In this document: positions 15,506 through 62,585 of the stretch, one piece after another
How positions within the stretch are numbered: the first letter of the stretch is position 1
Layout of the letters: the number at the start of each line of letters is the position of its first letter
Assembly (NCBI GenBank): GCA_000091205.1
Contig: AP006490.2
Origin: Cyanidioschyzon merolae
Lineage: Eukaryota
DNA: 64,000 nt
Reading direction: 5' to 3' (one strand)
Position numbers and translations under genes: made by a program
The notes under the pieces: model-generated
The model's database searches: none
What the model saw: the letters and a program-made list of their open reading frames with translations, nothing else
What the model was told of the DNA's origin: nothing

Positions 15506-16739
15506 GAGATACAACGACTCGTACGAGGAAGGATGTGCTCGTGGATTACTTGCGACGAAACACGGAGTTCAGCGTGCTCGCTCTCAGCCTGAACTAGCAC
15601 TCTCCGCGTGTTTCCGCGGCGCTAAAACAATGCTCCAGACTAACGACTGATCATAATCATTATCAACCAGACGGCAATCCTTCGAACCGAACAGCGACAA
15701 AGTCGTTGACGCTCCAACAGGTCCTGGGAACGGCAGCAACTGCCGAGTGCTTTGCGCGACTTTGGAAGGCGCGACGCGTTCACAGAAACCGGCGCTGTAG
15801 CGTGCACCCCTCGCTCCAAGAAGAAAGTGTCAACTGCGACGCCTGGTTTGTGCGCAACCTTTTCGAGGTTCTGCACCACGAAAGAGTGCGTCTTATGCTG
15901 TTCAGAGGAAACTAGTTGCAGCAGCAGCCGCGGCAGTCGTCGGACGACAGGGTTTACAAAAAAGACGGAACTGCGACTTGTGTGCGACGCCCGCTGCCGC
16001 TCCGGTGGTGCTCAGAAAGTCGATGCGCGAGGTTGGTTCACGACGCTGCGGGGTCTGCAGGTGCTAGGCGATCTCGTATGCCGAAGAGCACCACGTCGGA
16101 TAGTAGTGCTGTCTCCAGCTGGCTCTCGCGTGGTTACCGACACACCAAGCCACTTTTTTAACGGATATGGTGTAGGCACCAGGTGACAGCGTAAACACTC
16201 GTTCGTTTGAACAGGAACACCAGCAGCACAGCTGCGCTGTGCTGTCAGGGAACCCAAGTTCCGCTCCCGTGGTGGTGCTTATCTTCATAGGTTTCCGACA
16301 CCCGTGTCAGTTAGAAATGGACCGCTGGACTACTCGCTGTGTGCCTGGTTTTCGATCTTGCGAATCTTTACTAGATATACAAGCACGACATTCACAGTGC
16401 GGCAATAATGGTATAGGAATTCATAGCTAGTTCTTCAGGATTCTTGGTCATGGTTTCCGAATGGGTTCTTCGACGTTTTGTTGCAGGAATTGCTCACGTT
16501 ACCGAAAACACGATGATTCGCGACGCCATCCAACAAGGTCTCTGACCATGATCGATATCATGATCCAATGTAAAGGTACAAGTCACAATTCTTCTCTTTT
16601 TCTCATGTGCAGTATGCTCGAATCACGCATGCCTCAACTCGTCGATGTTTGCGATACAAGGCAACTCGTAGGCACAGCAATTTGCACCGCTCGACTGACG
16701 CACGGGAAAAGCAATCGACTTCGCCCGGTGACGATTTAT

Positions 16740-17950
16740 TCACAAGCTCAGGCCGAAAGTTCACTGTAATCGCCACGTTCGATGATCGATTCGGTTCGGA
16801 ATACGAATCCTCCAGTCTTTATGGCCATCGAGCGAGCCGCATTCGAGAGCAGCAGCGTGATGCCTCTCACGGAATGTGCTCCCAGAGGCTTCCGTGTCTT
16901 CTGTTTGCATAGAAAGTGAGGCCCTGTGCTCGGACTTGCGTCATCGCAGCGAACACGTCCGGTAGAGTGCGTAGCGCCGCTTTGCATGCAGGAAGCATAG
17001 ACGGATTCAAAATTATCGACTTGTTCTCCAGCCTTGACTTTCCTTTCGGTCCGTGCCACATTATCAACAACATCGCATTCCATAAATCCATGATCAAATG
17101 GAATTACTGGTGCTTGCTTGTGTAGAAGATCCCGAACTAGCCGAGAGGTTATGCCCCAGCGAAGATCGCCATCGTCAGGGACGGCACCAAGCGCGAAAAC
17201 GGAAAAGGGCATCATGTGAAGCCTGATCTACCTCTTGAAGGGCATGGACAGAGCGGTGAAGCAAACGATCATGCGCTGCTAGGTAGCATTCGAAAGAGAA
17301 GATGTGGTCGAAGTCTTGGAACACTTGACCGCAGTCACATGTAACCGTTGCAAAGGGCGCAACGAAGCTTTTTACAAACAAGATCGACATAGCCCAGGAT
17401 GCGCGTAGATTGCAACTGGCGCATGTACAAGACCTGCGTTGGCAACAGCCGGGACTTACGAACTCTGGACTTGCACACTGCGAGCAGCATTCTGCGACTG
17501 CTGACGACGGAGCATGAGCGAGGTGAAAACCCAGCGTATTGAAAGCTGAGCATAAGAGAGAGGAGGCGGAAAGCGTCGCGGAAGCAAGGCCTGCAAAGCT
17601 TGTGTTGATGAAACTTGGAAAATGCCCAAGCATGCGCCTGCACGCCAGTCTCAGCAGAGTGCACCATTAGCATTTCATTCTGAATCCAGCGTACGGCATC
17701 CCGCAGCGCGTTAGCGCTCGTTGCACATGGCGATGAATGACGGCCATCGCTGTTCATTGTCAAAAGACTAGATCCGCGCGCTGCGTCGCAACCAGTCGGT
17801 CCCTGGGCCGCACCTATGGTGCGACGATGCATACCCTGAGCTTTCAGTGCACACAGATAGGCTCTAGATCCCCGCACGGTATCGGTGATGGATAAGCAGC
17901 GACGCAAAACGCTCGGAATACGAAGGATGAAGCTTTGCCTGCCTCGCATT
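16740..17950 (-). mobile_element. TnpB/Fanzor-like element, family 2, copy a (degenerate, with frameshifts); inverted relative to copy b at 26.1-27.4 kb
   Basis: Homologous to 26140-27355 at both nucleotide (~75%) and protein level. The segment contains the helix before RuvC-II (DRLLHRSVHALQEVDQ, cf. TnpB [20 protein letters not shown]), a WG segment (ALGAVPDDGDLRWGI, cf. LALSISDAGWGEF), a GSRAYLCALKAQGMHRRTI block (cf. TnpB GSARYGKAKTKLARIHKRI), and a C-terminal LLLSNAARSMAIKTGG where the DRDxNAAxNI Asp is replaced. A ~25-nt 3-prime tail after the stop (gtgaactttcggcctgagct) is conserved between the two copies. Confidence 0.4.
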
Positions 17951-22260: not shown

Positions 22261-23760
22261 GGATGATCTGAGCTTACAGACTTTCAATTCTATTGCGTTT
22301 CGCCCCCGCTGCAGTGTATATGAGGACGTCGAAATAACTGTGCAACTTACCGTATATATCGTAGGTAAATTGTCTGCAGGATATATTCATTACTGAACAG
22401 CTCATGGAGGACTGCGTTCATCCTTCAGGTCAGTCGCACAATAATACGCAGATGGTTGATGAACACTGAAAGTAACAAGTAGGTAAGCACCGCACCAAAA
22501 ACTGGTATTCTCAAAGACTGCTAGCGATCAGTGGTAGAGAGCGACTCTTCGCTCACCGTACGGAAAGTTGGAGCGACGATAGAAGCCACTGCGACCGTCT
22601 CTGTTTCTCAACAGCTTGTTCACATTGCCCTGAAAACGCTGGGATACATTCGCAAAAGAAGACTCCATTCATTCACGGCCACCTTCCACCGGAATTGTAA
22701 CGACAGCGCTCCGGGTACCCAGCGATCGGTATGAAGCACAGGGTCGCCGGGTTTGCTTTTCCATTCGTTGAGACTTTCTTCGGACGCAACGGTCGGAGTA
22801 TGTATGGGTATTCGCGAAGCAGGGCCCCCGTTGTAAATACGATCGAAATCGAAGAGAACGAGGATATCTTCATCAGTCTTAGCTGCAGTGGATTCATTTG
22901 ACGGCCTCAGTTTCGCACCTACGGAAGGCGCATACAACAGAACCCTCTTCGTCGGATCATCGAAGACTTTTCTCAGACGTCTGGTGACGTCCTTCGATTC
23001 CACAATGTTGCATTTCACCATTCCCCTTGCATTCGAGTTTTTACTGAATCTTTCGGGATAGAGCTGCTTTCCATTCCTCCGTGCGCTCCTTGATTCAACG
23101 CCATCGAGGGAGCATTTTGTATCGTGAAACGTAATGATCGCTTTCCTTGCCGAATCGCTGAAGCGTCCGGCGTACGGTGCCACACCAGGGGCGCATTTCG
23201 TCTTTTTTCCACACGTCCTTCTCTGTCCATGCAGGTTCTCACCTTAGTGCATCAAGAAGTGTGTTCGTTTTGAAGAAATACAATATCCAAGAGATTAGCT
23301 GGGGTGTACACTCCAGAAGGTCGAGATAGAGAGTGGCCAGCGAAGCGCTTCGGCGATAGAAAAGCACGAAGAGGTGGCAGAGCAGCAAACGGCACAGAGA
23401 GAACCTGTTCGAGGAATCTTTGCATTAGTGCGTCCAACCAGAGGCAATCAACGTACGGAGTTCGTGGACCAAGACTTCAACGCCGTCATCCATATCAAAC
23501 GATGCGTGGTGCGGATGACGAGATTCGCGGACCTGATACGATCCAACTTTATGGGCCAGCCGCTCAGGCTCAACGTGTACAAAGAGAAATTGGAATCGAT
23601 AGCAGGGGTCCGGTCTTTAACGACTGGGAGGCGTCTGCACGTCGGTATTCATTTACCCTCCATAACTGTGAAACATTTAGTGTTTCACTGACTCTACAGA
23701 AGACGGCAATGGACTTGGGCCTGTGTCCCCTTAAGGATCGATTGCATTGAAGCATGGGTC
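22260..23760 (+). pseudogene. TnpB/Fanzor-like element, family 1, copy A2: 5-prime-truncated unit carrying the C-terminal RuvC-III region; head-to-head with A1
   Basis: Nucleotide-collinear with 38170-39600. ORF 23374-23691 carries RTEFVDQDFNAVIHIKRC (RuvC-III-like, Asp at 23473-23475) and a conserved tail ...RSNFMGQPLRLNVYKEKL. Frameshifts relative to copy B2. Confidence 0.55.
23374..23691 (+). pseudogene. RuvC-III-bearing C-terminal fragment of family-1 TnpB/Fanzor-like gene (copy A2)
   Basis: Shows EFVDQDFNAVIHI, which fits the TnpB DRDxNAAxNI pattern. Confidence 0.5.
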
Positions 23761-24670
23761 TCCGCTTTGCACCAAGGCGACATAGACTGATAGAAATATC
23801 TGGATGAGTTCCCAATCTTTGGTTTTTTCGGGTACTTATCGCATCATGGACAACATCGCGCACCGCAAATCCTCGATTCACTGGAACAGTGAGCGCTTGC
23901 GTGTGCAGCTGACAACGCACTCGCATACGGGATTGTACAGAAGAAGCGCGCCATAGCACGGTGCGACACCGGCGAAGTAGATTGCATCTATCCCTCTGGA
24001 CCCTTCAACGGCATATACCAAGCTATAAACCAAGCGTTTTCGTGCTACAGGGCGACACTGGAATTACGCAATGTGGTAGACGCATAGGAACATCTCATGA
24101 GAGTCAGGTGTCACGGTTGCGAAGCGCTCAGCGAGGCTGTGTACCTAGAACTTGAAACAGGCCTGCGAAGCGTAGGTCGCAACTCTCGCATCTGCACGGA
24201 ATGCACCAACGACTGGCAGAAGCGGTGAAATCGGGACCCGGACACTGCTATCCACAGCCTTTCGACAACGAGCAACGGAACTGGAGGGAAGGAATACCCC
24301 AATACATATAAAAACGTAGATGAAACAGTGGAAAAAGAGACCAGTTGAAGAAAAAGCTCCCAATGACTGGTATTGATGATCGTAGGAAAACCCGTAAACA
24401 CTGGAGTGTATGCCGCAGTCAGCAAAACGGACCCTTTCCAGGGTCGTCTGACATGACAGCATCTGGAGAATCCACGAATGCGCAGCTGCAGCAGAGGCAA
24501 CGGCAGCGGCAGCAGCGGATGGGCGTGCTCTTCACCAAAATCACGCAGCGGCGCGCTTTTCCGGCAGCGCGCTCGAAGCCGCGATGGTGAGAACAAGATT
24601 CACACAGGAACTGCCGCGGAACACAGGAACCAGACGAGTATTTGTTGCGTGACTTGTTCGACAGAAGCCC

Positions 24671-26139: not shown

Positions 26140-27355
26140 TTTGAGAGCACCTGCTCGGTTATTCGTTGCGAACACACGGGCTCAGTTTCGCGACGCTACC
26201 AGGCGCGTCGGCACGAACGCACCAGCAGCCACTGGTGCTGCGAGTCGCTGGAACGGGTGCAATTGCCGTTATTCAATAACCATAAACGAATGCCAAGCGT
26301 TTCAGGATCCACGCAAGGAGCTTTCCCTAGAGCAACGCATGTTGTACATGAAAACCGGAAATATAAGCGCTCCCTTTGGACCATGGTCTTCATTTTACTC
26401 GTGCTAGACTAGATCGGGACATGTCCGATACCTCGGGCCTATGATCTCGTATTGGGGTCTCTTGTTATTGTCATCAAAACTGGCCTTTTGGGGCTTTTTC
26501 TGTGACTGCTTCCGTTTTCACGATCTCTTAGCTCCGGATTTCTAAACGCAGGTCACTCCTGTCGCATTAGGTCCGCAATCTCTAACCAACGGGTGTTGAA
26601 GGCAGTTGTCAAGTCCCGATTACGCCACTTCAGGCTACCATCAACGCTTTTTTAACGCACGTGGAGGGTATAGTTGGGATCTCTGAACCGCTTGCCATTT
26701 CCTTTTTCTCTGGATACAGCGTCAAAGCGCCTTTCGCAGCGGTGACACGTGACCGTGTTCAGATGTTCCCGCATATCCATTGTAGCTCCGGCTTCGGTCG
26801 CCGTCCTGTGGCGCGTCAACGCTTGCTTCATCGTTCTGCGAATGCGCTTGACGAGTACGGAACGCAACCCTGGATGACCTGTTTCGTTTCCGCGCCCGAT
26901 ACCGTGCCCGAGAATCATCGGGGTCTGCTGGGCGAGCCTATCGCCGCGTACGCTACCCGCTGCACACGCTAGTGTATGCAGTTCGATTCGATTCAGGATT
27001 TGTGGGACGTGATGTTGTTCACAATGAAATCTGTACTAGGAAGAGAACTCCGGCTGGAGCATTCGTCTGGAAATTTCGATACGTCTACGCAATCTATTCG
27101 CGCACAACGGCAACGAACTCTCCACTGAAAACAAACCCTACAATGACGAAAACCGTGGCCCCAAATCCTTCTCCTCGGCAACAACAGAAGAGGTGGGAGC
27201 CTCTGGGGACGTGTCCCCGGACAGGTGTCACGTTACTGCTGTCGAATGCAGTTTCGTCGATGGCCACAAATCAGAAGAGGATTTGTCTTCTGAACGAGGT
27301 CGATAATTATTTGATTCGAGAATTTTTGTGAACTTTCGGCATGAGCTCGTAAAAA
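26140..27355 (+). mobile_element. TnpB/Fanzor-like element, family 2, copy b (degenerate); inverted partner of 16740-17950
   Basis: ORFs 26141-26407, 26661-26972 and 26972-27331 (+) match copy a. Shared segments include RRVGTNAPAATGAAS/RRTIGAAQGPTGCDA, APFAAVT...RLLHRSANALDEYG, TVPENHRGLLGE and a C-terminal GVTLLLSNAVSSMATN. The stop is TGA at 27329-27331, followed by the conserved tail gtgaactttcggcatgagct. Confidence 0.4.
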
Positions 27356-28481
27356 AGACGTCAAGCATTTCTACTCGTCAATGCAGTGGCTTGAATTGCC
27401 GCACCCACCAGTTGCCTTGGAAGAGAAACATTGAAATCCTGAAAAATGCATGATTTGAGCACACTACGCCAAAGACAAGGAGAAGAGCCGAGGATTCCGC
27501 ATGTGAATAGGATGACGATGTCTGCTGTTTTATGAACAGCTATTCGAGGGCGTCACGAATCATCCTCTTTCTGCTGAAGCAACGATATCCAGCGGCAAAG
27601 CGTCTTAGGGGCCAACCCGAACGCACAACCGAGAATCCTAAAATACTCATGAATCCGTAGGCCCTTGTTCCTGCTATTCGAACATCGAGGCTGTGCATGA
27701 AAAAAAAAACTACGCAAAAGAATCGAAAGACATGAAAACAGCGATCCGTTCAGAGTCCCATTTTAACCTGAACCCAGTTTTGTGCACCCAATATTCAAGA
27801 GGATCACGATCTCTTCCGACGATTGATGAGCTGCCTCTCCGGGACAGCATGCTTGCATACGAAAGCACGGAAATGTACACATATTCATATTTTCATGCGC
27901 GTGCATACACACGATGAATCCACCGCCCTCTCCGCAAACCTAGTACAGACAGCACGACATTTGACCTGGTGCATTTTGCCTTCGACGAAGAGACCGCTGG
28001 AGCTTACCGGGGCATTCTAGACTCCCGTAGCGCACGGCGTCTGATGCACCCGAGTTCTCAACAACGGGTCGGTGCGATCAAGACCTTGTTCCTTTTGGCA
28101 CGTTCCAGATACCGCATGCTCTGAAAACACGGTATGATGCGCCTGTAAAAACGAGGGAGCCAGTTGGCTGCACGACGCTGCCGATGCATATAACAGCGCT
28201 CCGCAAAAATTATCTTTCGGGACAGTAGATCTTTGGCTGGCGACGGAGCCAACGCTATACGCAGATAAGCGCCGCATCGCAGCGCTCCGTCCACCGCAGG
28301 CTCTATCCATTGCAGAGTGTTCCGCGCCGTGTCTTCCGAGCCACAGAGTCTGTCCAGAAGCGTCTCTGAGCACAGATCATACGTCTGCGATATGCGGGTG
28401 CAGCAGCACGGCAACGATACCAGTGCAGCCGTGTCGCACTTCACAGCTAGAAACGTCAAGTATCCCATCTACTGCCGCTCT

Positions 28482-36619: not shown

Positions 36620-39149
36620 AATGCGTCCAATTGTATGCACTGCATTGCTTGTATTTATCGTCACATAACGTGACGAGTTACGCAGGAGTTTTCGCCACGT
36701 GTACCCGGGTATGTTTGGGCCGGATACCCGGAGACCGCACTTTGCTTGTATTTCACGGTATATATTGAAAGATGGAGGGCGATGCGCGGAGCGCTCCCGG
36801 AGTCGTAACTACATTCATTTCGCGGACTTGTTGTTGGTGTCATGAAACCGCTTCAGGTCAGTTGCCGCATGCCTGCGGACGACGTGTCGCTCGGGTGGTT
36901 GCCCGAGTAGCGCCGCGATACGCCCGCTCCTGGTGCGCATCGCCAGTGGAGGCGTTTCCATTTGGGTTGTACTCCTGCTCGAGTGATCCACGGCGATGAC
37001 AGGTATCCAAAGTGCTCACGTAAGAGTGACTTGCATGGATGAATGATGATGGTGAAGTGCTGCGATGCGTCGGAAGCACCGTTGTCCGTCTGAATCGTGT
37101 GCGCTGCTTTCGTTCTGGCTGGAGCGGAATGATCTATTTCGGGAAGGAATACGCGCAGTATCGCTGGGGCCGCTGCAGACCTCGCTTCGATAGATGCTGG
37201 CGCGTTACTTGCGTTTTCTTGTACGACATACCCGAGAATACTTTCGATGCTGCAACGTCGAAGACGTAGAAATGCTGCAGCAACTATTCGTGTTGCTGTT
37301 GCTGTGTAGGCGTCTTTGTGTACAGCCAGGCTTGTGCGCCCGTGTTCGTCATCGTCGATCGAGGCATGTACACAACCATTCTTTTGGACCAAACGCTCCA
37401 CTTATGTGACGGGTACCGATCCGAGCAAGGATTCCTGGAAGCATGTGCGTGCATACGCGGGCTCTCTTCCGGTCTCGTGACCAGACGGTCGTCCAGTGGG
37501 ATGCTGGTACCGCAATCAGCGCCGCAGTGCTTGCGAGCGGCTCGCATGCATCCAAACTCGTTCGCCGTTCACGATATCATGCCATGGTGCGATGGAAATT
37601 AATTCTTCATCGTCTTCAATACGGCTAGGAATTAAGCTGGGGTACGGATACGCTGCTGGCGAGCGCGTTTCAGCGGACGTTTGGCTCACACGCTGACGCT
37701 GCTCATTCAACGGTACATGTGCCCGACGCGCCTGCACTCGCGACAGCGGCGCGCTGTAGCGAGCGGCTTGCCACGAGATGCCAAGTCGCGCACAGCAGTA
37801 GAACGCTGACGTGCTGCAACGACTCGTAGACGCTGGGCCCGCGCATTCGCCCTGCACCGTCGTACCAGAGCAGGCGCAGGGACGCGTCCGGATGCAGGGT
37901 GTTGAACGTACGAGCGTTTTCCAAAAATATACAGAAATGTTCCGTTTGTGCTAGATGAACAAGGAATACCAGGCGTGTACTGTCGCCCGATCGGTGCTTG
38001 CGAGCCACATCCAGTAGGGAAAAAATGTACATAAATGTGCTGTATTGTCTAGACACCCTGATGACACTTGGCATGCCCGCTGCCTCGTTGCCATTTGGAC
38101 CGGGAAGCGCGGAACGGCGGGCGCGCAGACACCATGCCTTGCCCGCCTGGCATCAGCGCTAGCAGCGCAGGTGCGGGTGACGTCTTTGAACTCGAGTATG
38201 GTCTGCCGCCGCTTTCTGCAATCGAATGCATTTTCGCATTGTATACCATTAGATCGAAATGAGCATGCCGTGTACCGAACAGAACGTAGACATGTTGCCT
38301 GCAGAAAATGTTCTGCAATGAACAGTGCAACGAGGACTGCATTCTTCACTCTATTCAGTCGTACTGCAGTGCTCTGATGGTTGAGGAATATTGAAAGAAA
38401 GAAGGATATGCGCTCCGTGCCAAAAAAGATAGGCTTAAAGACTGATTGCGTTCAATCGTGGAACAACGATGCGTTCATCAACTTATGGAACGCAAAATCG
38501 ACGATAGCAACGGCAACGAGTGTCTCCGGTTCTGATCAGATTGTCCATGTTCTATTAAAAACACTGGAACACAGTCCCAAAAATACTTCTGTTTCACGCA
38601 CGGGCATCTTCCACCAAAGTCGTGACGATAGCGTTCCTGGAACGTTACGATCGGTATGAAGCGCAAGGACGTAGGGTTATGTTTTCAGTCGGTGAGACTC
38701 GCTTCGGACGAACCGTTCGGAGCGTATACGGGAATTTGCGGAGCACGGAGCCCGTTCTATGCACGATCGAGCTCGAAGAGAAGGCTCATACATCAGCACT
38801 CACTCTCTCGAATCAATGAAGGATTTTGCCGGACGTCTGACGACCTTGCTCTACTGGACAACGTCGCATTTCACCATTTCCCTTCGCTTTGGAGCTTTTT
38901 GCCGATGCAGTCGGGGTAGAGCTGCTTTTCATTTATGTGCACGCTTCGTGGTCGAACCGCATCAAATGAGTTGTTTCTGTCATGAAACGTAATGATCGCT
39001 TCACTGGTCGAATCCCTGGACCATTCAGTATAGCGTGAAACACTGGGACACTAGTCGTCATTCCTGCGCAAGTCCGTCTCCGCCGGGAAGGACCTCACCA
39101 AGGTCCATAAAGAAGTGCGTTCACTATGAAGAAATAAGAAATCCAAGGG

Positions 39150-39524
39150 GTGAGCTGGGGTGCAAAGTCCTGCAGGTCGAGATGGCTAAAAAGCAGCGGA
39201 GCCCTGATGATATATAGAAAAGTATGGAGCGCTGAGAGAAGAGGAAACGAAGGGATGGCGCAAGTTCGAGGACTACTCGCACTGGCGGGTTTAAGCGGCG
39301 AGGGCAATAAACACGTGGAGTTCGTGAACCGAGACTTGAAAGCTGCTATCAATATCAGGAGATGCACGGTGCTGGAATGGAGACCTCCGGAGCTAACACG
39401 ATCCATCTCTGTAGGACAAACTTTTAAGGTGGAATTATACGATAATGTGTTGAAATCAGTTGTAGGCGGCCGGTCCAAGACGACGGAAACACGTCTGTAC
39501 GTCAGTCGGAGACGTTTTGTCTAG
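39150..39524 (+). pseudogene. RuvC-III-bearing C-terminal fragment of family-1 TnpB/Fanzor-like gene (copy B1)
   Basis: Shows FVNRDLKAAINI, i.e. the DRDxNAAxNI pattern with Asp and NI conserved. Confidence 0.55.
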
Positions 39525-39600: not shown

Positions 39601-41860
39601 TCGATGTACGGGTTAGGCTCTCGAAACTAATCGTATAGAGTAGACCTGAATACAGTACGCGCTTTTGTCAAGTGCCTCGATCGTGCCAGGCGAGATGCAA
39701 GGCTCAAACCTCATGGCAGACATGGACGCTACCTGTGTGCACTGCCTCTGCCAAGATCGCCGGATCCGGAGGACGAAGCAGGCACCATAACTTGGACAAC
39801 GACAGCAGCATGGAATTGAATTGAACTGCCAGCAGTTCCAGAACATAACACGGGATAGAAGCAAAATTCAGGTCAGTTCCTTAATCCGGCGTCCGTGCGG
39901 CATGCATAAGAAGCATAGGGATGAAACGTATATCCGTGTTCAGGAACACCACCGTACGTTGTTTGGTTACGATCAATAAAACTAACGAAATTCCTAATGA
40001 GTAGAGCGATGCACACCTCATCCGCACGAGCGTAGGATACTACGATGGCTACGCTTTTGATTGAAGCGTCGAGAGGAATCGTGTCAGGCGCCTGCATCCC
40101 CTTGTATGTCAGGGCGGTACTGCGATGGGCGGGAGCGTCGGCACCAGCGACATAGCCTATAACAGGAGATCGTTCTGCGTGAGTTTCCGATCTAGGACAC
40201 TTGCTTTCCGCTGCAGCGCGATGCGAACACGCATGTGCCAATGCGGGGTGTCGGACACGTGTCCTTCATCGATCGGTGAGGCGTCTCGCGCGGTGCACGC
40301 ATCGCGCTCGGTGAGTGCACCTCGTAGATCGGGCAGTCAACTGACACGATGCGCATGCCGCCGTTGAAGAGTAACGCGATTGGGATCAGTAGCGTGTAGC
40401 TGTAACGTAAAAGCTGGATTTCAGGTGAGGTCTTAGCCAAGTACAGTCTTTCAGTTCATTTTTGTTTCAGCCCTCAAACAAGTGTATTCAAGTGTTTTTT
40501 TCGCAGTGTATAACAGAAGCGTTCAAAGAGCGTTCTTGTTCAAAAAAACTAAAAAAGGAAAGATATGAAAAAGCAAGTCGACGATCCTGGAGGCACAGGG
40601 TCGCCGGCTGCCAGAAAAAAAAACAAAAATCAGTACCGAGTCCAGAGGAAAAGGAGGAGAAGAGGAAGGACCGAAATGGGGAGGTCCTACGTCGAAGGCG
40701 ACAAGAAAGACGACTTTACGACCAGATGGTGGATAAAAGCTGTCTTCTTAAACATATCTATGATCCCTACAGGGAAAAGTTGCGAGACGCTATCAAAGAA
40801 CGTGTTGCGTCATACTCGAAGAGTATTGTCAAGGCGTCATCAGGACTAGTGCATTTGGCGAGGGAGATGTATCGCGACGTGGCGCACATGGAAACGGTCG
40901 AGATTCCGGACGAGTTTTTCGACAAGACCTGTATTCGTCACCTGATGGTTGGTAGCGAGGAAGCGCGGAGGGAAAATATGCTATTGCATGCCCTGCACGA
41001 AAACATCGCGGAATTCTGCTTCGAGGGTACCCCATTCAGGGGTGACCCGGATATTTACACATACGGGGCGATGAAGTACCTCACGAACCTGAAGAACCTT
41101 TTGACAATGAACCTGGACCGTTTCGTAGTACGCGCCGTATTTTTGTGCTCTACCCGCGCGTCTCTCGCAACGGGATATGGACAATTTCAATGCCATCACG
41201 AAAGATCGTAAGCATGAATATGAGGTCGAATTTGTCGACAAGAAGCCGTCACGCAGGAGAGCAAATGATGATTCCGTCATCCGTTTGGTCATACAAGAGC
41301 ACCGTGCGGTACTGGGGTTGGCGAATCCAACAGAAAGGATATCAGAGTTAAAAAACGATAAGGAAAGATACGATCGCCTCATTCTGCGGTATTTAGTGCT
41401 TCTAGACCTAGAACTTGAATGCAAGGCAGAGATGAAGCTGAGTGGGGAAAAATGAAGAGTGGGAGAGACGGAAGGCTTTCCTTATGGGTAAGCGCTTCAA
41501 CGTCGTACCAGTGTGCAACATCAAGTCGCATTTTGTGACCGTCGACTCCATAGTCCTTTACAGCATCATGATGGAGATCAGTCCGGAGTTGAATGTTAGC
41601 AGGGAGGAGTTCACCGGCGAAAACCGGGAGACGTACTGGAAGAGCATCTTCGATTTCAAACGTCTCAAAGTAAGCAAACAAAAGGTATTCACTGGGATGA
41701 TCGAAACCGATGGAGTAGCCATGTGTGTACACTCTCGGCGGTTGAAGAAAGATCGTCCTGGCCCGCCTTTGGCTTCGCCCGTGACGAAGGATGAAGAAAA
41801 CAAAGAGGAGGATCCTGCGATGTAGGAGGTAGTGGGCAACAACGTTGCCGTTGACGTGAC

Positions 41861-42010
41861 GAAGTATGAAGATGAGAAGGAGGCGGAACCTGCGACGCAG
41901 GAGGTGGAGGATAACGACCTTGTCGTTGCCGCGGCGAAGTATGAAGATAAGAAGGAGGCGGATCCTGTGATGCAGGAGGTGGAGGATGACGACTTTGCCG
42001 TTGGCGCGGA
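41861..42010 (+). repeat. 75-bp tandem duplication (x2) inside the family-1 copy B2 coding sequence
   Basis: Encodes [25 protein letters not shown] followed by [24 protein letters not shown]. Copy A1 has a single unit. Confidence 0.7.
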
Positions 42011-42487
42011 CCCCGGAAACACAAATATCATCACCATCGCAGCACCGAAGCGTGCGGAAGATGGTACTGGCGGCAACTTACGCCAGAAAGACATGTGACT
42101 TTTGAGGTTCTCGAGCGCGAAATACTATCGAGAATCGGGAATAATGAATGCGAGGAAACAATTCGAGATATGGTATGCAGGAGTGAAAGCGCATTTGAAG
42201 CGATCAGCCAGGTGACGAGCCGTGGAACGAACTTTGAAGCTTTTCGGATATTCGTGAAAGTTCGTGTTGCCCATTTGGAGGCGCTGTGGAAAGAGTATAT
42301 AAAGCCCAGATGGGCTCGTTTGCGTATGAATCTGTACTGTGGTAAGCAGCGTGCGTTCGCGAACTTTTTCAATCATTTGAGCACCCTGAAAGAGGACAAG
42401 ACTCAAAGGCTCGAAGTAGCGTATGGGGAGGGGCGCTGGCTCACCCAAAAAGGGTACACACCAGTTCCAACGACAAGAACTTACTAG

Positions 42488-42790
42488 GAGTGCGCAAGGC
42501 GTTTCGTTACGGTACCGATCGATGAGTTTCGAACATCGTACACACACCACGAGCTGGGGTGTACACTTCAGTGGGTCGAGATGGAAAAGTGTCAGCGGAG
42601 CTCTGAAAATACAAAAAAGTACGGACCGCTGACGGAAGAGCAAATGGAAAGGAGGGCGAAAGTTCGAGGGCTACTCGCATTAGTAAGTACAGTCAGTGGC
42701 AAGAAACGTATCGAGTTTGTGAATCGTGACTTTACCGCAGCTATCAACAGAACGAGATGTGCGGTGATGGAAGGTAGACCGCCAGACTAG
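42488..42790 (+). pseudogene. RuvC-III-bearing C-terminal fragment of copy B2 (in the same frame as 42095-42487, separated only by TAG at 42485-42487)
   Basis: Shows ECARRFVTVPIDEFRTSYTHHELGC...KRIEFVNRDFTAAINRTRC. Confidence 0.6.
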
Positions 42791-42918
42791 ACAAGAGAGA
42801 ACTTTGTTGGACAACCTCTCAAAGTGGAATCATATGAGACAAACTTGAAACAAGTAGTAGGTGGCCCGTCGAAACAGACTGGCACGCGTCTGCACTTCAG
42901 TTGGAGCCGTTTTGACTA

Positions 42919-52117: not shown

Positions 52118-52599
52118 TAGGGTGCCGATCCTCTTGGTCTTTGGAGCTTGCGCGTGCCGTCAGGGTGCAGGTCGCCGCTCGCGAGTTGCGTTCCGGTACG
52201 CAGCGCAGCGTCGCTCCCTGCCAGGGACGAGTGCAAGTGAGACGCCTCGAGGGAACGTCGCGAACGCCCGAGTCGGTACGCTGTGACGGTTCCTGTTGAA
52301 AGATGCGAGACCGCTGCGATTGATGAGCAAGCACAAGCGAAGCAGCCAAGAGAAGAGCGCTGTAACGCGGGTCGGAAGACGTCTCTTGAAACACGACATC
52401 GCCCTGGGGCCGCTGAGCGCTCGACGCGTTTCAGACGAACATCGGGCGATGAACTGGTCGCTCGATACCTGCTGGGGGATGTATTTTTCTCGAACTGTTT
52501 TTTTAAATGTATCGTGTCGATCGTAGACGAGCGGTAATAAGGGCTTACGGGTTCGTAAGTGGTTTTAGGATTGTGGGTCGTGTTGCACAAGTGGCTGCT

Positions 52600-53720
52600 T
52601 CGACGCTTTGCTGCTCGATTTCGTTAAGGGAATCAAGATGATTCGCGATGCTTTTGTAAACCAGATTCCTAGAATACTCGATTGCTTGATGCAATTCGTA
52701 TGTTCAAGTCTCCACTCTTGTCCTTTGCTTACATTTCGCATGATGAAATCACGCTTTTTTCAAGTTTTCCTATTTCTTTTTTCGAAGCAACTGGAGAGCG
52801 CAGCAATACTTTCCACTGGATTGACGAGGAAAACAAGTCGACGTTGTCAACGAACGACTTGTTCACGAGCTCGTGTGTCCAGTGTCTGCAGAACGATTCA
52901 CGTCCCATAATCGGTTCGGTTCGAAATACGCACCTTAGGTTCTTTGTGGCCGTCTGGGAAGCGGCATTCGACACCAGCTTGGTATATCTGTTCAGAGACA
53001 CTCCATGCGGTTCCCGCCTCTTCTTTTCACATGGAAAAGGGTATTGGACACGGACTCCAGTCACTTCAGCGATCGCTTTCCGCGGAGCGCATGTCTCTGC
53101 TTTCAAGGAAGCGAGCTTGGACAGATCGAAATTTCTCGGCCTGTTCTCTAGTCTTTAGTTCTGCTTTTATTTGTTTCATCCTGGAAAGCATTGCGTCGCA
53201 CAGATCCTCCACCGAAAGCAAGCGTATGTGCTTGCAGATGCAGCATACTCGCCAGGTGTATCGCCACAAAGACGCCCGTACCCTTGGGTACCGCACTGGG
53301 CACGTAAACGATGGATAGGTACGTCTGGACCTGTCAAGGACGTGTACCGAGCGACGGCGCTAGCCCTCTGGTGCCACACGGCATCTCCTGAAACAGAAGG
53401 CACAGTGAACTTGCGGGAACACCTGACCACATGGAAGCGTTGCTGCTACGAAAGCCGCACCGAGGCCAGATACGAACACAATGAGAATGGCGAGCGAGTC
53501 GTCATTGCAACGACCGTCGGTGCATGAAATGCGTCGACAACAACCGGGAGCAGCGATATCGAGACTTGAATGCGGCCATCAGCATCCTTCAACTACGAAA
53601 AACGGATCTGGAAGCAGAGGTGAGACGGTGTTAATGACATCGGGAGATCAGAAAGGAGCAGAGAAAGCAGTCGCGGAAAAAGTCCACAAGAACTAGTGCT
53701 GACGCTCTGGTTACCAGACG
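52600..53720 (+). pseudogene. compact TnpB-like element, family 3, copy a (frameshifted)
   Basis: RuvC-I-like FHWIDEEN...LSTNDLFTSSCVQCL in ORF 52682-53158 matches VFDVGTIPLKGYVSSDFCLRCL of copy b. The open frame 53485-53637 encodes HCNDRRCMKCVDNNREQRYRDLNAAISILQL (CxxC plus RDxNAAxxI; Asp at 53563-53565). About 80 nt after the stop are conserved with copy b. It sits in an AT-richer island. Confidence 0.5.
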
Positions 53721-54819
53721 CATCCCACTTTATGCTTGCATGGGTGCAATTACTTACAGGTTTTGCGGTAGAGTCGCTGGACAAAGCGTTGCTGGATCGA
53801 GCGAGTACGCATCGCTACGTGGAAACCCCCAGACTGCTTTTGATGAAGTGTTCAGAATTTGGTCAGGGAAATGAAGTCTTCTCTCCCAATAGAGGCAGTG
53901 TTTGCGCTTTTGTTACCTTGCAACGAGCCGCGTCTTTGCTATGTTGTGAGAAAACAGCCAAGAATGCTATGGTCCAAGACACGACGCATGCGACAGTTCT
54001 GGGTTCCACGGAGCTCGGCCCTTGAAACACGATGAAATGGACCTCAAGCTTCGACGTATACCCCGCAGTCTTTACCTGAATCAAAGTGTGTTTCAGGAAC
54101 GCCATCATTCACAGCGAATAGCCTGAAGGCAGCGCTCATGGTTTCTCGTCTTCCTCAAGTGAGAAACAGGGTGAAGAAAGCGACACCCATGGACCGTACG
54201 CCAGAATCCGTTCCCTTGCGCTGCTCTCTCTCTCTCGCGCGCCCTGCTGGTGAAGGTGTGCGCAAAGCCTCAGCCGAGTTCCGCAAAACTTTGGTAGCTG
54301 GCGGGGAACCGCGTTCTTTGGCCCTGCATACCGAGAGCGGATCTACAGCGTAACGCCATGGGAGCGTCACAAGCACCCGTCGCACTGCACTTGATCGGAT
54401 GTTGAAGCACCGGTGTGATGACCACCACCAGCAGTCTCACGGGATACAGTGCTTGAATGACTCATGATTTCCCCAGTAAGCGACTATTCGCAGTGCCCAT
54501 ACGCTCCCGTCTCTCAAGTCGTGATCCAAAAAAAGCGTCGCACCGCAGCGTGCTCGCAGACGCTCGGAAACGCCAGTGATGATACCACGTTTCTGAGACA
54601 GGTTTGCAGCACCCGGCCCTGTTGCCAACGATAAAACCGCAAGCCTCTGTTGAGGCTGCACGACCTGACGCGAATGCGCCTGGAGCAGCGCAGGAACACG
54701 CCACGAATGTGCTTGTCCCGGGCATCCTCCAGTCCAGTAATCCTGCGTCTCCTGCATGGATCCGAGGAATTCCATCAATAGGTCGATGCGAATCCCTTAT
54801 CCACCTGATTTGTTGGACT

Positions 54820-58309: not shown

Positions 58310-58530
58310 ACCAGCAGCTGTGCAGGGCTACATCCACAGATACGACTCTATGGGCTGTATAAGGTGTTGCTATCTAGCGAGATGTATGCTTTCAATGAAA
58401 TTACCAGCAGCTGTGCAGGGCTACATCCACAGATACGACTCTACGGCCTGTATAAGGTGTTGCTATCTAGCGAGATGTATGCTTTCAATGAAATTACCAG
58501 CAGCTGTGCAGGGCTACATCCACGAGTCCT
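58310..58530. repeat. 93-bp tandem repeat, ~2.4 units
   Basis: The unit accagcagctgtgcagggctacatccacagatacgactctatgggctgtataaggtgttgctatctagcgagatgtatgctttcaatgaaatt is repeated at 58310, 58403 and (partially) 58496. In ORF 58226-58660 it encodes a 31-aa repeat. Confidence 0.85.
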
Positions 58531-60737: not shown

Positions 60738-61059
60738 GGTCGCCAGCAGACAGCCGCACCAAAGTACACGGCCTCGGAATAGCGCTCACCCCCGAGTGAT
60801 AGGACTGGTGGAATTCGCGCGATTGCTCCCGCGCTCGCCGCGACATCGACGCGCGTGGACACGCCACCCGGGGGTCCAGGGACGGTCGATAGTAGCGCCT
60901 TGTCGTTTTTTTCTTATCGTTACACCGGGGTTAGGTGAGCATGGGACATTGAACAGCTCGCTCTATTTATGTGTTGAGCATGTTTCTCCCACCTTTTTAT
61001 TAGGTACACGGCGTTGACACTCGAAGTGGATCAATTAGGGTGTGAGGAATCGTAGGTAG

Positions 61060-62230
61060 ATATGGGATTCCTGGTCGTATGTTCGGAATGGCTCCGTCGA
61101 CGCTTTGCAGCTGGAACTCGCGACGTTCCTGGAATCCGGGTGATTCGCGACGCACTCGAACAAGCATTCGTAAAAAAACCGATATCATTATCAGATTCGT
61201 ATTTGCGGGCCTCTACTGTTCTGCTCTCCTTACGTATTGCATGCTGCAATTACGAATCCGCCAAGTTGTCGATCTCTGTGTGTCAAGGTAACTTGTGGGG
61301 GCAGCAGTTCGCACTGCTGATCCAACGAGACAAAGCTAGGCGTCTTGTTTGGCGGCTTGTCCACAAGCACAGATCGAACGTTCTCTGAACTTGACACATC
61401 AAGGAATCGTTATCGTTCGCAAGGCAAATCCTCCTCGCCTAGCGAACATCAACGAAACAGTATTCGACGTGGGCACGATACCTCTGAAAGGATATGTTTC
61501 GAGTGACTTCTGTCTCCGCTGTTTGCATGGAGAAGGGTCCTGGACGTATAGTTGAGTTATCGCGTGAATCGCTTCCAGTGCGGAGTCTGTCAACGCTGTG
61601 AACGCAGAAAGCGTGCAGGGTTCACAGCGTCTCGACTTGCTCTAGTACCTGAATCGTTCATCTGGGTCTTGTTTCATCATGGGAACCAACGCGTTCCACA
61701 AATCCTCTATCGAAAAGGAAGGCTTGCACTTGCATGTGCAGCACGCAGCGTACTTGCCGAGGTGATCGTCCAGAAAAAGCCCTTAATCATTGGACACGGC
61801 ATCGGGCACTGAAACGCATGAGAGCATCGAGGGTAGCCCTCTGTACCCGTCAAGGGCATATACCGAGCGATGAAGCGAGCGTACACGCTCCACTGGTCAA
61901 CGCCTGGAATAGCAGGCGGCCTTATGGGAGTATGGGGAAATCTGACGCGAATGAAGTGTCAGCACTGAGCACAGCGCACCGAGACAGTGTTTGAAAAAGA
62001 TGCAAATGGCAAGCGAGGCGTAGATCGCCATCACCGCCAGTGCATGAAATGCGTCGACAACGACAGGAAACTGCAAAATTGGGACTTGCACGCCAAAACC
62101 AATATCCTTCAACTGCTGGCAAAGGAGCTGGAGCGACCGGAGAGACCGGCATTTTGAACGCCAGAGATAAGCGTGTTGGGAATGAAGCAATGGCAGGAAA
62201 AATCCGCAATTCCTGTCGTTGATGACAATA
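61060..62230 (+). pseudogene. compact TnpB-like element, family 3, copy b (~400 codons in three frames)
   Basis: ORF 61349-61555 carries the RuvC-I-like ETVFDVGTIPLKGYVSSD (cf. TnpB AAGVDVGIKDFAIVTDG; Asp at 61466-61468). ORF 61552-61812 carries CGVCQRCERR...QILYRKGRLALACAARSVLAEVIVQ (the helix plus RuvC-II region, cf. DFLHKL...E). Frame 61969-62160 carries RQCMKCVDNDRKLQNWDLHAKTNILQL (the RuvC-III region; Asp at 62083-62085). A conserved 3-prime tail runs to ~62230. Confidence 0.55.
61969..62160 (+). pseudogene. RuvC-III/zinc-finger C-terminal fragment of family-3 TnpB-like gene (copy b)
   Basis: Shows CMKCVDNDRKLQNWDLHAKTNILQLLAKELERPERPAF, homologous to 53485-53637. Confidence 0.5.
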
Positions 62231-62585
62231 TGGCGAAATCCAGACGGTAACGTCTACGCCTAGTTTGGCTCAGTGGGTCTGTTCCATTTTATTCTGACCT
62301 GGGTAGTGTAGTCCATCGTTGTTTCATAGGCCGCATGGGCAAAGCGTCACCTCATGCGGCTCGCCATGCGTTTCTCGTTCGACTGGCGCTTGAATCTCGC
62401 ACCAACATCAAACGTCCAGAAATTGTATGGTGCGCTCAATTTCCTACCATCTCAGACTTGAGTTCACTTCGAACATAATCAAACGCTGAAGCAGCACTGA
62501 AGCTGAATCCTCTATTCTCGGAGCTTTTCACTATGCTAAACTGACTTGGGACCCGTCGGCAAAGTTTTGAAATAGTAGCGACAGC

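Follow-up and report, generated by a model that had tools for sequence, protein, structure and literature searches.

Decayed repeats of Cyanidioschyzon merolae join a truncated DDE transposase to a Fanzor1-like C-terminal remnant

The repeats described here, referred to as family 3, are probably dead, non-autonomous Tc1/mariner–IS630 transposons that arose by internal deletion from a mariner element carrying a Fanzor1 gene. They are found in a 64-kb window, the whole stretch analyzed, of nuclear DNA of C. merolae 10D (window proteins BAM79842-4), where a preliminary description had seen a compact TnpB-like family. Family 3 is an ordinary transposon fossil and not a working RNA-guided nuclease, and neither its transposase part nor its Fanzor part can now encode an active enzyme.

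Copies and divergence

The full-length unit of family 3 is ~1.38 kb long. The window contains five copies, namely a, b, c, d, and the 5'-truncated e (Table 1), instead of the two recognized initially, and hot-spring metagenome contigs yielded 8 or more additional, distinct full-length copies with the same ~1.38-kb architecture. Loci a and b are homologous across ~1.3 kb. The copies are 70–76% identical to the consensus and 58–60% (~59%) identical to each other, the latter value being uniform along the element. Stop codons and frameshifts are abundant in every copy, and frameshift-aware alignment to the consensus mapped at least 8 private disruptions per copy, located at non-equivalent positions. 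The substitution spectrum among copies is balanced, and a RIP-like or deamination bias was rejected on this ground as the source of the many stops.

Domain searches were carried out with an unedited 12-copy consensus, to which the window contributed 4 copies and hot-spring metagenomes 8, and an earlier 5-copy consensus was also scored. The bounds of whole elements were obtained with nhmmer and a 4-copy DNA model.

Table 1. Family-3 copies, their parts and motifs, and CMe-1A relics in the window (rows for single motifs give motif coordinates)
Copy	Feature	Position	Strand	Remark
a	Whole element	52422..53746	+	~1.33 kb; ~63 nt deleted relative to consensus; nhmmer, 4-copy DNA model
a	Transposase remnant	52507..53272	+	5 frameshifts; frameshift-aware alignment to consensus
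a	D1, FVAVWEAAFD	52943-52972	+	
a	D2, FILESIASHRS	53175-53207	+	
a	AAYSPGVSPQR	53240-53272	+	
a	Fanzor1 C-terminal remnant	53321..53634	+	One frameshift at ~53502; alignment to consensus
a	REHLTTWKRCC	53414-53446	+	
a	HCNDRRCMKCVDNNREQRYRDLNAAISIL	53503-53589	+	Includes RRCMKC...RDLNAAISIL at 53515-53589
b	Whole element	60923..62308	+	1386 bp; termini 5'-CAC...GTG-3'; nhmmer
b	5' TIR, CACCGGGGTTAGGTGAGCATGGGACA	60923..60948	+	5' ends aligned to reverse-complemented 3' ends
b	Transposase remnant	61004..61777	+	0 frameshifts relative to consensus; 7 in-frame stops
b	D1 region	61439-61474	+	
b	D2, FIMGTNAFHKS	61673-61705	+	
b	AAYLPR	61745-61762	+	
b	Fanzor1 C-terminal remnant	61774..62157	+	-1 frame; 4 internal stops; Fanzor1 HMM match 61783-62151
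b	KKPLIIGHGIGH	61774-61809	+	
b	PSVPVKG	61837	+	
b	GNLTRMKCQH	61936-61965	+	
b	RQCMKCVDNDRKLQNWDLHAKTNIL (RQCMKC...NWDLHAKTNIL)	62035-62109	+	
b	ERPERPAF and stop	62131-62157	+	
b	3' TIR (TTCCATTTTATTCTGACCTGGGTAGTG region)	62283..62308	+	Same end alignment and 12-copy consensus
c	Whole element	26396..27784	-	nhmmer; Fanzor1 HMM match 26852-26547
c	D1, FVAIDETAFDSS	27270-27235	-	Native motif retained
c	D2	27028-26996	-	
c	MILGHGIGRG	26918-26889	-	
c	REHLNTVTCHRCE	26771-26733	-	
c	NRDLTTAFN	26621-26595	-	
d	Whole element	16299..17695	+	nhmmer
d	D1	16818-16853	+	
d	D2	17057-17089	+	
d	LEHLTAVTCNRCKG	17316-17357	+	
d	LDLHTASSIL	17465-17494	+	
e	5'-truncated element	23695..24456	+	Covers model positions 629-1406
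e	D2	23840-23872	+	
e	EHLMRVRCHGCE	24088-24123	+	
e	NRDPDTAIHSL	24229-24261	+	
	CMe-1A relics	40600-42913, 21886-20588, 23299-23646, 38882-39521		

Transposase part and termini

Codons 1 to ~260 of the consensus constitute the transposase part. The 12-copy consensus matches DDE_3 (PF13358) with 40.1 bits (cut-off 28.6) and the NCBIfam IS630 transposase model (NF033545) with 60.2 bits (E = 2.2e-16), far below the equivalog cut-off of the latter (100 bits). The IS630 alignment is colinear, pairing consensus residues 48–236 with profile positions 50–238 of 299. The helix-turn-helix models HTH_33 (E = 5e-4), HTH_Tnp_Tc3_2 (E = 1e-3), and HTH_32 (E = 0.013), all below their cut-offs, are placed N-terminal to the DDE domain. 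The N-terminal string SEWLLRRFAAG was rejected as a W..RF..G helix-turn-helix, being in the wrong frame; the frame leading into the first catalytic motif reads ...STLCCW.S.R.RN...

The first catalytic motif (D1) of the consensus is FVAIDETAFDSS, with the core FVAIDETAFD, and the second (D2) is FIMDNIAFHKS. At the Glu position of the third catalytic residue, ~34 residues past D2, the consensus has Arg. A degenerate YSP..SP motif occurs 23–29 residues after D2, beyond the end of the DDE_3 alignment. A TGA within the transposase frame is present in 5/12 copies, and 6 of the 7 remaining copies have a codon one substitution away from TGA. The master copy of family 3 was already defective.

The D-V-G and I-D-E strings of copies a and b, formerly taken for a RuvC-I-like segment, occupy non-equivalent positions. 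The FDVG of copy b (61439-61474) aligns with FDTS of copy a (52943-52972), and both lie in the D1 motif of a DDE transposase, whereas the I-D-E of copy a (HWIDEENK, 52814-52837) is an unrelated string located ~110 nt upstream in the frame of the D1 motif of this copy. The supposed ILYRK...LAEVIV helix (61702-61770) turned out to be an out-of-frame reading of the nucleotides encoding D2 and YxP (61673-61762).

Both terminal inverted repeats (TIRs) and TA target-site duplications, as expected for Tc1/mariner–IS630 elements, are present. The TIRs are 26 bp long and match at 23 of 26 positions in the consensus; they were missed by a simple inverted-repeat scan and became visible when the 5' ends were aligned to reverse-complemented 3' ends and the 12-copy consensus was considered. 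Copy b is flanked by an exact TA on both sides (60921-60922 and 62309-62310). TA is found at the 3' flank of 6/12 copies, and the duplications are degraded in most copies of the family.

Fanzor1-derived part

The last ~125 codons of the consensus form the Fanzor part. The profile PF07282 (TNB / OrfB zinc ribbon) scores 26.9 bits with the 12-copy consensus (cut-off 26.3) and 22.3 bits with the 5-copy consensus. A profile search of repaired proteins, proposed in the preliminary description, thus succeeded with the 12-copy consensus, but not with stitched individual copies: Pfam searches of these and of raw ORFs gave no significant match, the stitched C-termini of copies a and b, the two copies searched in this way, did not match PF07282, and a signal was obtained only with consensus sequences. 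The C-termini of eight published Fanzor1 proteins were made into an HMM, which matches the consensus from the GxG motif to RPA with 57.7 bits (E = 1.4e-16), compared with ~10 bits for the best of 2000 shuffles. In pairwise comparisons, the five best Fanzor1 proteins (CRe-4, CRe-2, CRe-1, CVu-1, and CMe-1) score 14–23 bits, the top one being CRe-4 of Chlamydomonas (23 bits), and the Fanzor2 proteins ACa-1 and ACa-2 score about -1 bit.

Judged by these matches, the affinity of the C-terminal segment is to Fanzor1 and not to Fanzor2 or prokaryote-sized TnpB, and the zinc finger together with the RD.NAA.NI segment does derive from the TnpB superfamily. The initial TnpB-like assignment therefore holds for this segment, whereas the rest of the element is a DDE transposase in another frame; and in place of a ~400-aa prokaryote-sized TnpB, preferred at that stage to a long Fanzor1, the homology is to the last ~125–150 residues of long Fanzor1 proteins. 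Since only these residues are present, family 3 does not represent a full Fanzor1 gene.

Fanzor and TnpB proteins are characterized by the motif D-x(125,275)-[TS][TS]-x-x-C4 zinc finger-x(5,50)-RD (Bao and Jurka, 2013; PMC3627910). Its downstream half is found in the consensus, which reads EHLTTVKCHRC...LCMKC at [TS][TS]-x-x and the C4 finger and has the RuvC-III RD 5–50 residues past the finger (NRDLNAAINIL; YRDLNAAISIL in copy a). The finger is seen in copies c (NTVTCHRC) and d (TAVTCNRC) and is degraded in a, b, and e; the zinc-finger-like peptides and the adjoining RYRDLNAAISI (copy a) and NWDLHAKTNI (copy b) noticed at the outset are indeed there. In the Fanzor frame, neither a RuvC-I Asp 125–275 residues upstream nor any upstream Fanzor similarity was found, and the Fanzor1 HMM alignments begin at the GxG motif or a little upstream of it, ~65–85 codons before TT. 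An Asp ~155 codons upstream belongs to the other reading frame, inside the DDE_3/IS630 match.

We consider it unlikely that family 3 is a plain Tc1/mariner–IS630 transposon with a C-terminal zinc ribbon of its own that merely resembles TNB, its master copy having suffered a frameshift without any Fanzor ancestry. Zinc ribbons are common as add-ons, no Fanzor N-terminal part was found for family 3 in the window and 25 metagenome loci, and by eye ...HRCERRTEAVY..NG resembles the Tc1 C-terminal ...RRCQAVIDANG. However, the Fanzor1 match, at a score against which shuffles reach at most 10 bits, extends beyond the cysteines and covers (V/I)(V/I)xGxGxG, P.K...L, the RuvC-II motif (D)E..T[ST], both CxxC pairs, NRD.NAAINIL, and the RPAxF tail, and the consensus exceeds the curated cut-off of PF07282. 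Moreover, the ~120 residues that such a transposase would have past AYSP are about twice the usual tail of Tc1/mariner transposases, such as Mos1 and Sleeping Beauty.

Junction and 3' tail

The switch from the transposase frame into the -1 frame of the Fanzor part is common to copies a, b, c, and e and is therefore ancestral; its place in copy b is between 61762 and 61774. The junction can be located only to within ~100 nt, as the Fanzor frame can also be aligned across the D2/AYSP region of the transposase frame and the DDE_3 alignment leaves out AYSP. The transposase frame stops 4–5 codons past the junction at a second TGA that is kept in 4/12 copies and is one substitution away in most others, and thus is probably ancestral. 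Two frame changes at equivalent places had been reported for each copy; one shared ancestral change stands, whereas the other stops and frameshifts are private to single copies.

Short introns, formerly regarded as no less plausible than decay, are contradicted by copy b, which has no frameshifts and yet contains the stops listed for both of its frames in Table 1. The breaks that GT-AG introns would have to repair differ between copies, and no conserved GT...AG pair is visible by eye at the shared frame change in a five-copy alignment. Introns are generally few in C. merolae, with only 27 in the genome (PMC4829280).

The ~80 nt past the stop, which had been proposed to be a conserved guide-RNA tail, have an inter-copy identity of ~59%, which equals that of the other parts of the element, and farther 3' the identity falls to 37–41%. 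No family was found in an Rfam search of the 3' tail, and its consensus fold has -4.95 kcal/mol over 297 columns, although 59% identity would hide a lost structure. A structured RNA is unsupported given the lack of an Rfam match, a conserved fold, and excess conservation, and the proposed tail is the 3' subterminal region together with the inverted repeat. It is quite improbable that family 3 was an omega-RNA-bearing "ghost" exploiting both the transposase of a mariner element and the nuclease of a Fanzor1, each supplied in trans, and spreading by means of its TIRs and its retained Fanzor1 3' end, the part that encodes the omega RNA in Fanzor units. If this were nevertheless the case, a second, mariner-borne, and now extinct Fanzor1 lineage would have existed in Cyanidiales.

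Strain comparison, neighborhood, and relatives

Between strains, the relics have 5–10 differing sites per kb, including indels, whereas the coding sequence that flanks them has 2–4 per kb; the copies are decaying neutrally, without constraint between strains. Domestication of at least one copy, especially copy a, as a host gene is very improbable. Copy a occupies an identical, fixed insertion site in several strains, and wild strains have uninterrupted ORFs over it, P0001 (275 aa) and P0002 (295 aa), such length being unusual for a decayed pseudogene. Yet the copy-a ORF crosses several different ancestral frames, and hence preserves neither ancestral protein, and it contains no Pfam domain; a TAG at 53156 interrupts it in strain 10D, and within it the strains differ by 1–2-nt indels. 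The divergence of this ORF between strains (7–10 per kb) is similar to that of intergenic DNA and 2–3 times that of neighboring coding sequence.

From 5.8 billion proteins, a search recovered the orthologous copy-a ORFs P0001 and P0002 and nothing else, which means that the query has 5-residue words in common with no intact relative. With phmmer, the consensus had no relevant match among PDB sequences. A full-length parent, that is, a complete transposase or a Fanzor1 N-terminus joined to family 3, was absent from the window, the 25 metagenome loci, and the 5.8-billion-protein search. Metagenome contigs L017-L020, with two inverted 5' halves 1.5 kb apart, were rejected as a parent, their middle matching neither the transposase consensus, nor the Fanzor part, nor CMe-1. 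The neighbors of family 3 are host genes (nucleoporin, ubiquitin hydrolase, and Rho GTPase). The serine-recombinase TnpA that would adjoin an IS607-type element, suggested earlier as a nearby gene to look for, was not found in the neighboring ORFs, and ten intervening ORFs have no Pfam match.

It is hardly credible that the copies represent compact TnpB/Fanzor2-like genes of ~400 aa, present-day or recent, with short introns and an ~80-nt omega RNA tail: the consensus C-terminus does have the [TS][TS]-x-x-C4-x(5,50)-RD half-motif and passes PF07282, and the Asp of VAIDE, ~155 codons upstream, falls inside the 125–275 range when frames are ignored, but this Asp is in a different frame, within a colinear DDE_3/IS630 match of ~190 residues, the Fanzor homology stops at or near the GxG motif and is to Fanzor1 rather than Fanzor2, and the private disruptions, the scarcity of introns, the lack of a nearby serine recombinase, and the features of the 3' tail given above all argue against it.

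Origin of family 3 and comparison with known systems

Family 3 would have originated most economically when a mariner element, with a transposase gene on its 5' side and Fanzor1 as a cargo gene on its 3' side, lost its interior; a deletion is inferred here rather than another kind of recombination. The ~1.38-kb unit starts with a TA target duplication and a 26-bp TIR, followed by ~260 DDE codons comprising a candidate helix-turn-helix region, FVAIDETAFD, FIMDNIAFHKS, and the degenerate AYSP..SP, with the catalytic Glu and the C-terminus missing. After the switch to the -1 frame, it continues with the last ~125 Fanzor1 codons, comprising VILGxGxG, the RuvC-II Glu in (D/W)EHLTT, the C4 zinc ribbon, NRDLNAAINIL, and the RPA(Y/F) tail, and it ends with a 3' untranslated stretch of ~130–150 nt, the other inverted repeat, and TA. 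As the deletion product retained both ends, it could have been moved by a transposase supplied in trans, presumably in one old amplification burst that was followed by neutral decay.

The TnpB/Fanzor-like zinc finger and RuvC-III signature is here a fossil fragment in a mariner-type shell, which corrects a tempting mis-annotation. The C. merolae genome is famous for its very few repeats. Family 3 adds to it a second Fanzor1-related lineage, linked to Tc1/mariner vehicles in a red alga, and provides a clean case of an internally deleted transposase–cargo chimera amplified to at least 12 copies. No function of it is evident today, and its interest for genome-editing tools is small.

Family 3 resembles IS630/Tc1-mariner (ITm) elements in its DDE domain, preceded by a candidate helix-turn-helix region, its TIRs, TA, and size of ~1.3 kb, and has in common with them the motifs D1, (V)xIDE(T/S)xF, and D2, (I/V)xDN...HKS. 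Unlike these elements, it has sequence of Fanzor1 origin, read in another frame, in place of the third catalytic residue and the last ~60 residues of the C-terminus.

The only C. merolae Fanzor1 listed in the 2013 survey is CMe-1 (Bao and Jurka, 2013; PMC3627910). CMe-1/CMe-1A and family 3 are ancient, multi-copy, and decayed in the same host and share a Fanzor1 C-terminus with NRD.NAAINI. However, CMe-1A is ~3.2 kb long, has no TIRs, encodes a 734-aa Fanzor1, and has lost the first CxxC pair, whereas family 3 has TIRs, TA, and an ancestrally intact C4 finger. With 14 bits against CMe-1 and 15–23 bits against green-algal Fanzor1 proteins, family 3 is no closer to CMe-1, and tblastn with family-3 pieces did not match the CMe-1A copies in the window. 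Copy e starts ~50 nt past the last residues of a CMe-1A Fanzor1 relic that match the CMe-1 protein.

Fanzor loci with flanking inverted repeats, including "ghost" copies without an ORF, have been described (Saito et al., 2023; PMC10432273). The "ghost" or partial loci of Spizellomyces punctatus are, like family 3, non-autonomous, with TIRs kept and no functional Fanzor ORF (PMC10432273). In the S. punctatus ghosts the ORF is wholly absent and the copies are well preserved (PMC10432273), whereas family 3 is decayed and has a 3' ORF fragment fused to a transposase fragment.

Mariner elements encoding both a transposase and Fanzor1 have TA duplications and 24–33-bp TIRs (Bao and Jurka, 2013; PMC3627910). 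Those of Pythium ultimum (PUl-1, PUl-2, and PUl-4) and Phaeocystis globosa virus (PGv-1) have TA and TIR ends as in family 3, and PGv-1 and its relatives encode the transposase on the 5' side and their cargo, to which Fanzor1 belongs, on the 3' side (PMC3627910), the same layout and orientation as in family 3. The PUl and PGv elements are 3.4–4.4 kb long with complete genes (PMC3627910), whereas family 3 is 1.38 kb long and consists of out-of-frame fragments, decayed in all copies; the likeness between them is one of architecture.

Family-3 copies and their genomic setting

Family 3 is a real repeat family of ~1.38 kb, whose members are ordinary fossils of a non-autonomous mariner-type element with the tail of a Fanzor1 gene. 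It counts five copies in the window (a–e; Table), two of which (a and b) had been read in the preliminary description as the only copies and as compact TnpB-like genes with the spacing of a ~400-aa TnpB. Copies a and b do form one family, with homology spanning about 1.3 kb, and the zinc-finger peptides quoted for them are real (HCNDRRCMKC...RYRDLNAAISIL at 53503–53589 in copy a, RQCMKC...NWDLHAKTNIL at 62035–62109 in copy b). Nucleotide identity is 58–60% in all pairs of window copies and is even over the element length. Copy e starts at model position 629, about 50 nt beyond the last residues of a CMe-1A relic that match the CMe-1 protein; this position suggests either a nested insertion or that one of the two elements was cut short by the other.

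The window comes from the nuclear genome of the red alga Cyanidioschyzon merolae 10D, with long ORFs identical to nucleoporin 155 (BAM79842), a ubiquitin protease (BAM79843), and a Rho GTPase (BAM79844), and its loci were found again in hot-spring metagenomes with >99% identity. Together with at least four relics of CMe-1A, the Fanzor1 family already known from this alga, the 64-kb window contains the five family-3 copies, at 16.3–27.8 kb and 52.4–62.3 kb, every one of these elements being intergenic with intact host genes on either side. This local relic density seems high for a genome with very low known repeat content. The region between the ubiquitin-protease and Rho GTPase genes shows the top strain-to-strain variability (about 15 differences per kb), and also carries a tandem repeat at 58310–58523 (93-nt unit, 2.3 copies, 98% identical).

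Coordinates and characteristics of family-3 copies and other mobile-element relics
Feature	Location	Strand	Remarks
Copy a	52422–53746	+	family-3 member
Copy b	60923–62308	+	family-3 member
Copy b, transposase part	61004–61777	+	zero frameshifts, seven in-frame stops
Copy b, Fanzor part	61774–62157	+	collinear, four stops
Copy c	27784–26396	-	family-3 member
Copy d	16299–17695	+	family-3 member
Copy e	23695–24456	+	family-3 member, 5'-truncated
CMe-1/CMe-1A relic	40600–42913	+	residues 12–733 of the 734-aa CMe-1 consensus, 50–79% identity, frameshifted
CMe-1/CMe-1A relic	21886–20588	-	known C. merolae Fanzor1 family
CMe-1/CMe-1A relic	23299–23646	+	known C. merolae Fanzor1 family
CMe-1/CMe-1A relic	38882–39521	+	known C. 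merolae Fanzor1 family
Divergent Fanzor1-like relic	31951–32869	+	tblastn E = 6e-8; 26–27% identical to CMe-1 residues 370–689
Family-3 5' half, metagenome contig L018	3915–4708	+	model positions 14–812
Family-3 5' half, metagenome contig L018	6940–6182	-	model positions 16–782

Transposase part and element ends

No single copy gave a domain match; the matches come from a majority consensus made without reference to any protein family, in its final form from 12 distinct copies (four from the window and eight from a metagenome scan). The transposase frame of this consensus begins with an ATG located ~80 nt internal to the 5' repeat, stays open for about 260 codons, and contains FVAIDETAFDSS, followed after 77 residues by FIMDNIAFHKS and after another 23 residues by AYSPRGSP (the D1, D2, and YSP motifs, D1 and D2 being the catalytic-Asp motifs of DDE transposases). 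It matches DDE_3 with 40.1 bits (cut-off 28.6, E = 4e-10) and the NCBIfam IS630 family transposase with 60.2 bits (E = 2.2e-16), the latter alignment being colinear (consensus residues 48–236 vs. profile positions 50–238 of 299). An earlier five-copy build had scored 25.7–30.2 and 36.7 bits, respectively. HTH_33, HTH_Tnp_Tc3_2, and HTH_32 match weakly on the N-terminal side of the DDE domain.

Alignment of 5' ends to reverse-complemented 3' ends, followed by the 12-copy consensus, brought out the terminal inverted repeats CACCCGTGTCAGATGAAAATGGAACA and CACCCATGTCAGAATAAAATGGAACA, 26 bp each and in agreement at 23 of 26 positions. TA is present on both flanks of copy b and at the 3' flank in one-half of the copies (6/12). 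An element of this size with inverted repeats and a TA duplication has the hallmarks of the Tc1/mariner–IS630 group.

The segments previously assigned to RuvC-I find other explanations: "D-V-G" of copy b is FD(S/V)(S/G), the segment that follows the D1 catalytic Asp in the DDE transposase, and "I-D-E" of copy a, located about 110 nt 5' of D1 in the frame used there by that copy, is not homologous to it. The "ILYRK...LAEVIV" helix is the Fanzor-frame reading of a stretch that the transposase frame translates as D2...YxP.

Fanzor1 part

The Fanzor frame, at −1 relative to the transposase frame, stays open for the final ~170 codons of the consensus and reads ...AQKKPVILGYGTGRG...PSVPVKGMYRAMKQAF...VNIWEHLTTVKCHRCERR...LCMKCVDNSRKQRNRDLNAAINILRLLTTELERKERPAY. 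In HMM searches, suggested earlier as a check, single copies were silent, and this frame of the 12-copy consensus passed PF07282 (Cas12f1-like TNB; 26.9 bits vs. cut-off 26.3). An HMM of the C-terminal regions of eight Fanzor1 proteins (Additional file 3 of Bao & Jurka, 2013) scored 48.0 bits with the five-copy and 57.7 bits (E = 1.4e-16) with the 12-copy consensus, the top score of 2000 composition-matched shuffles being 10–12 bits. The alignment begins at the Fanzor1 motif "RPKEEVVVGWG", ends in the RPA.F tail, and includes DE..TS (RuvC-II), both CxxC pairs, and nRD.NAA.NI; the consensus has no similarity to either of two Fanzor2 proteins compared. The proposed TnpB-like gene contains a genuine TnpB-superfamily fragment, the tail of a Fanzor1 gene within a mariner-type element.

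The ~80 nt after the stop, taken for a conserved candidate guide-RNA tail, are no more similar between copies than the rest, and farther 3' identity falls to 37–41%. They belong to a 3' untranslated region that runs to the inverted repeat, with zero Rfam matches and zero conserved structure in this tail. No serine recombinase was found among the neighboring ORFs.

Frame change and ancestral defects

All window copies except d, in which there is an additional indel, share the −1 offset, which places the frame change in the common ancestor. In copy b, the cleanest one, the switch occurs after AAYLPR (end 61762) and before KKPLIIGHGIGH (start 61774). The position of the junction has an uncertainty of about 100 nt; alignment with the Fanzor1 HMM can stretch weakly across the D2–YSP region, and that with DDE_3 stops short of YSP. 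Rescue of the frames by short introns is not viable given the stops of copy b, the frame breaks of individual copies, and the mere 27 introns of the entire C. merolae genome (PMC4829280).

Two TGA codons look ancestral. The first, inside the transposase frame, is TGA in 5/12 copies, and six of the remaining seven are one substitution away from it; the second is located 4–5 codons beyond the junction, in nucleotides reading P-V-I in the Fanzor frame. Thus, the amplified unit had no functional transposase to begin with and only a Fanzor stump.

In other strains, copy a is covered by ORFs of 275–295 aa (P0001 and P0002) that pass through several ancestral frames and vary by indels. A TAG at 53156 splits the long ORF in 10D, the five metagenome or Logan strains examined all having CAG in its place, and in the L004 strain a 2-nt deletion (52873–52874) joins two frames into the 295-aa ORF. 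Given the mixed frames, the 10D TAG, and the indels, we rejected them as conserved genes and regard them as chance ORFs.

Other Fanzor relics and derivatives

The CMe-1/CMe-1A relics are presumably the other "families" of the preliminary description; CMe-1 is the only C. merolae entry of Bao & Jurka (PMC3627910). The Fanzor1-like relic at 31951–32869, much more divergent than these, which also contains a weak match to the Fanzor1 C-terminal HMM (32570–32854), may represent a third Fanzor lineage of this genome.

Four metagenome contigs (L017–L020) carry paired inverted 5' halves of family 3 with 1.5 kb between them, both halves stopping just past D2. Their middle part has no match to the family-3 transposase consensus, the family-3 Fanzor part, or CMe-1, and the arrangement, with inverted arms of ~800 bp, may be a distinct derivative.

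Origin and decay

Identity to the consensus is 70–76% in all 12 copies, the substitution spectrum is balanced, and relics in present-day strains differ at 5–10 sites per kb, including indels, vs. 2–4 per kb in adjacent coding sequence. A single old burst of amplification followed by neutral decay fits these values.

Searches of the window, 25 metagenome loci, and the protein database turned up no full-length parent, and we infer the origin of family 3 by deletion from its architecture and from precedent. The parent would have been a mariner element with a 5' transposase and a 3' Fanzor1, as PGv-1. An internal deletion starting directly after the second Asp/YSP region of the transposase and ending directly before the Fanzor1 GxG motif would give exactly the family-3 structure, and the product, retaining both ends, could have been mobilized in trans. 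Partial and "ghost" Fanzor loci that retain the inverted repeats of a Fanzor-bearing transposon are likewise known from Spizellomyces punctatus (Saito et al., PMC10432273). Mariner elements including PUl-1 and PGv-1 have 24–33-bp inverted repeats and TA duplications, and PGv-1 and its relatives encode the transposase 5' and cargo, including Fanzor1, 3' (Bao & Jurka, PMC3627910). Family 3 resembles PGv-1 and its relatives in the order of transposase (5') and Fanzor1 (3'), in the inverted repeats, and in the TA duplications.
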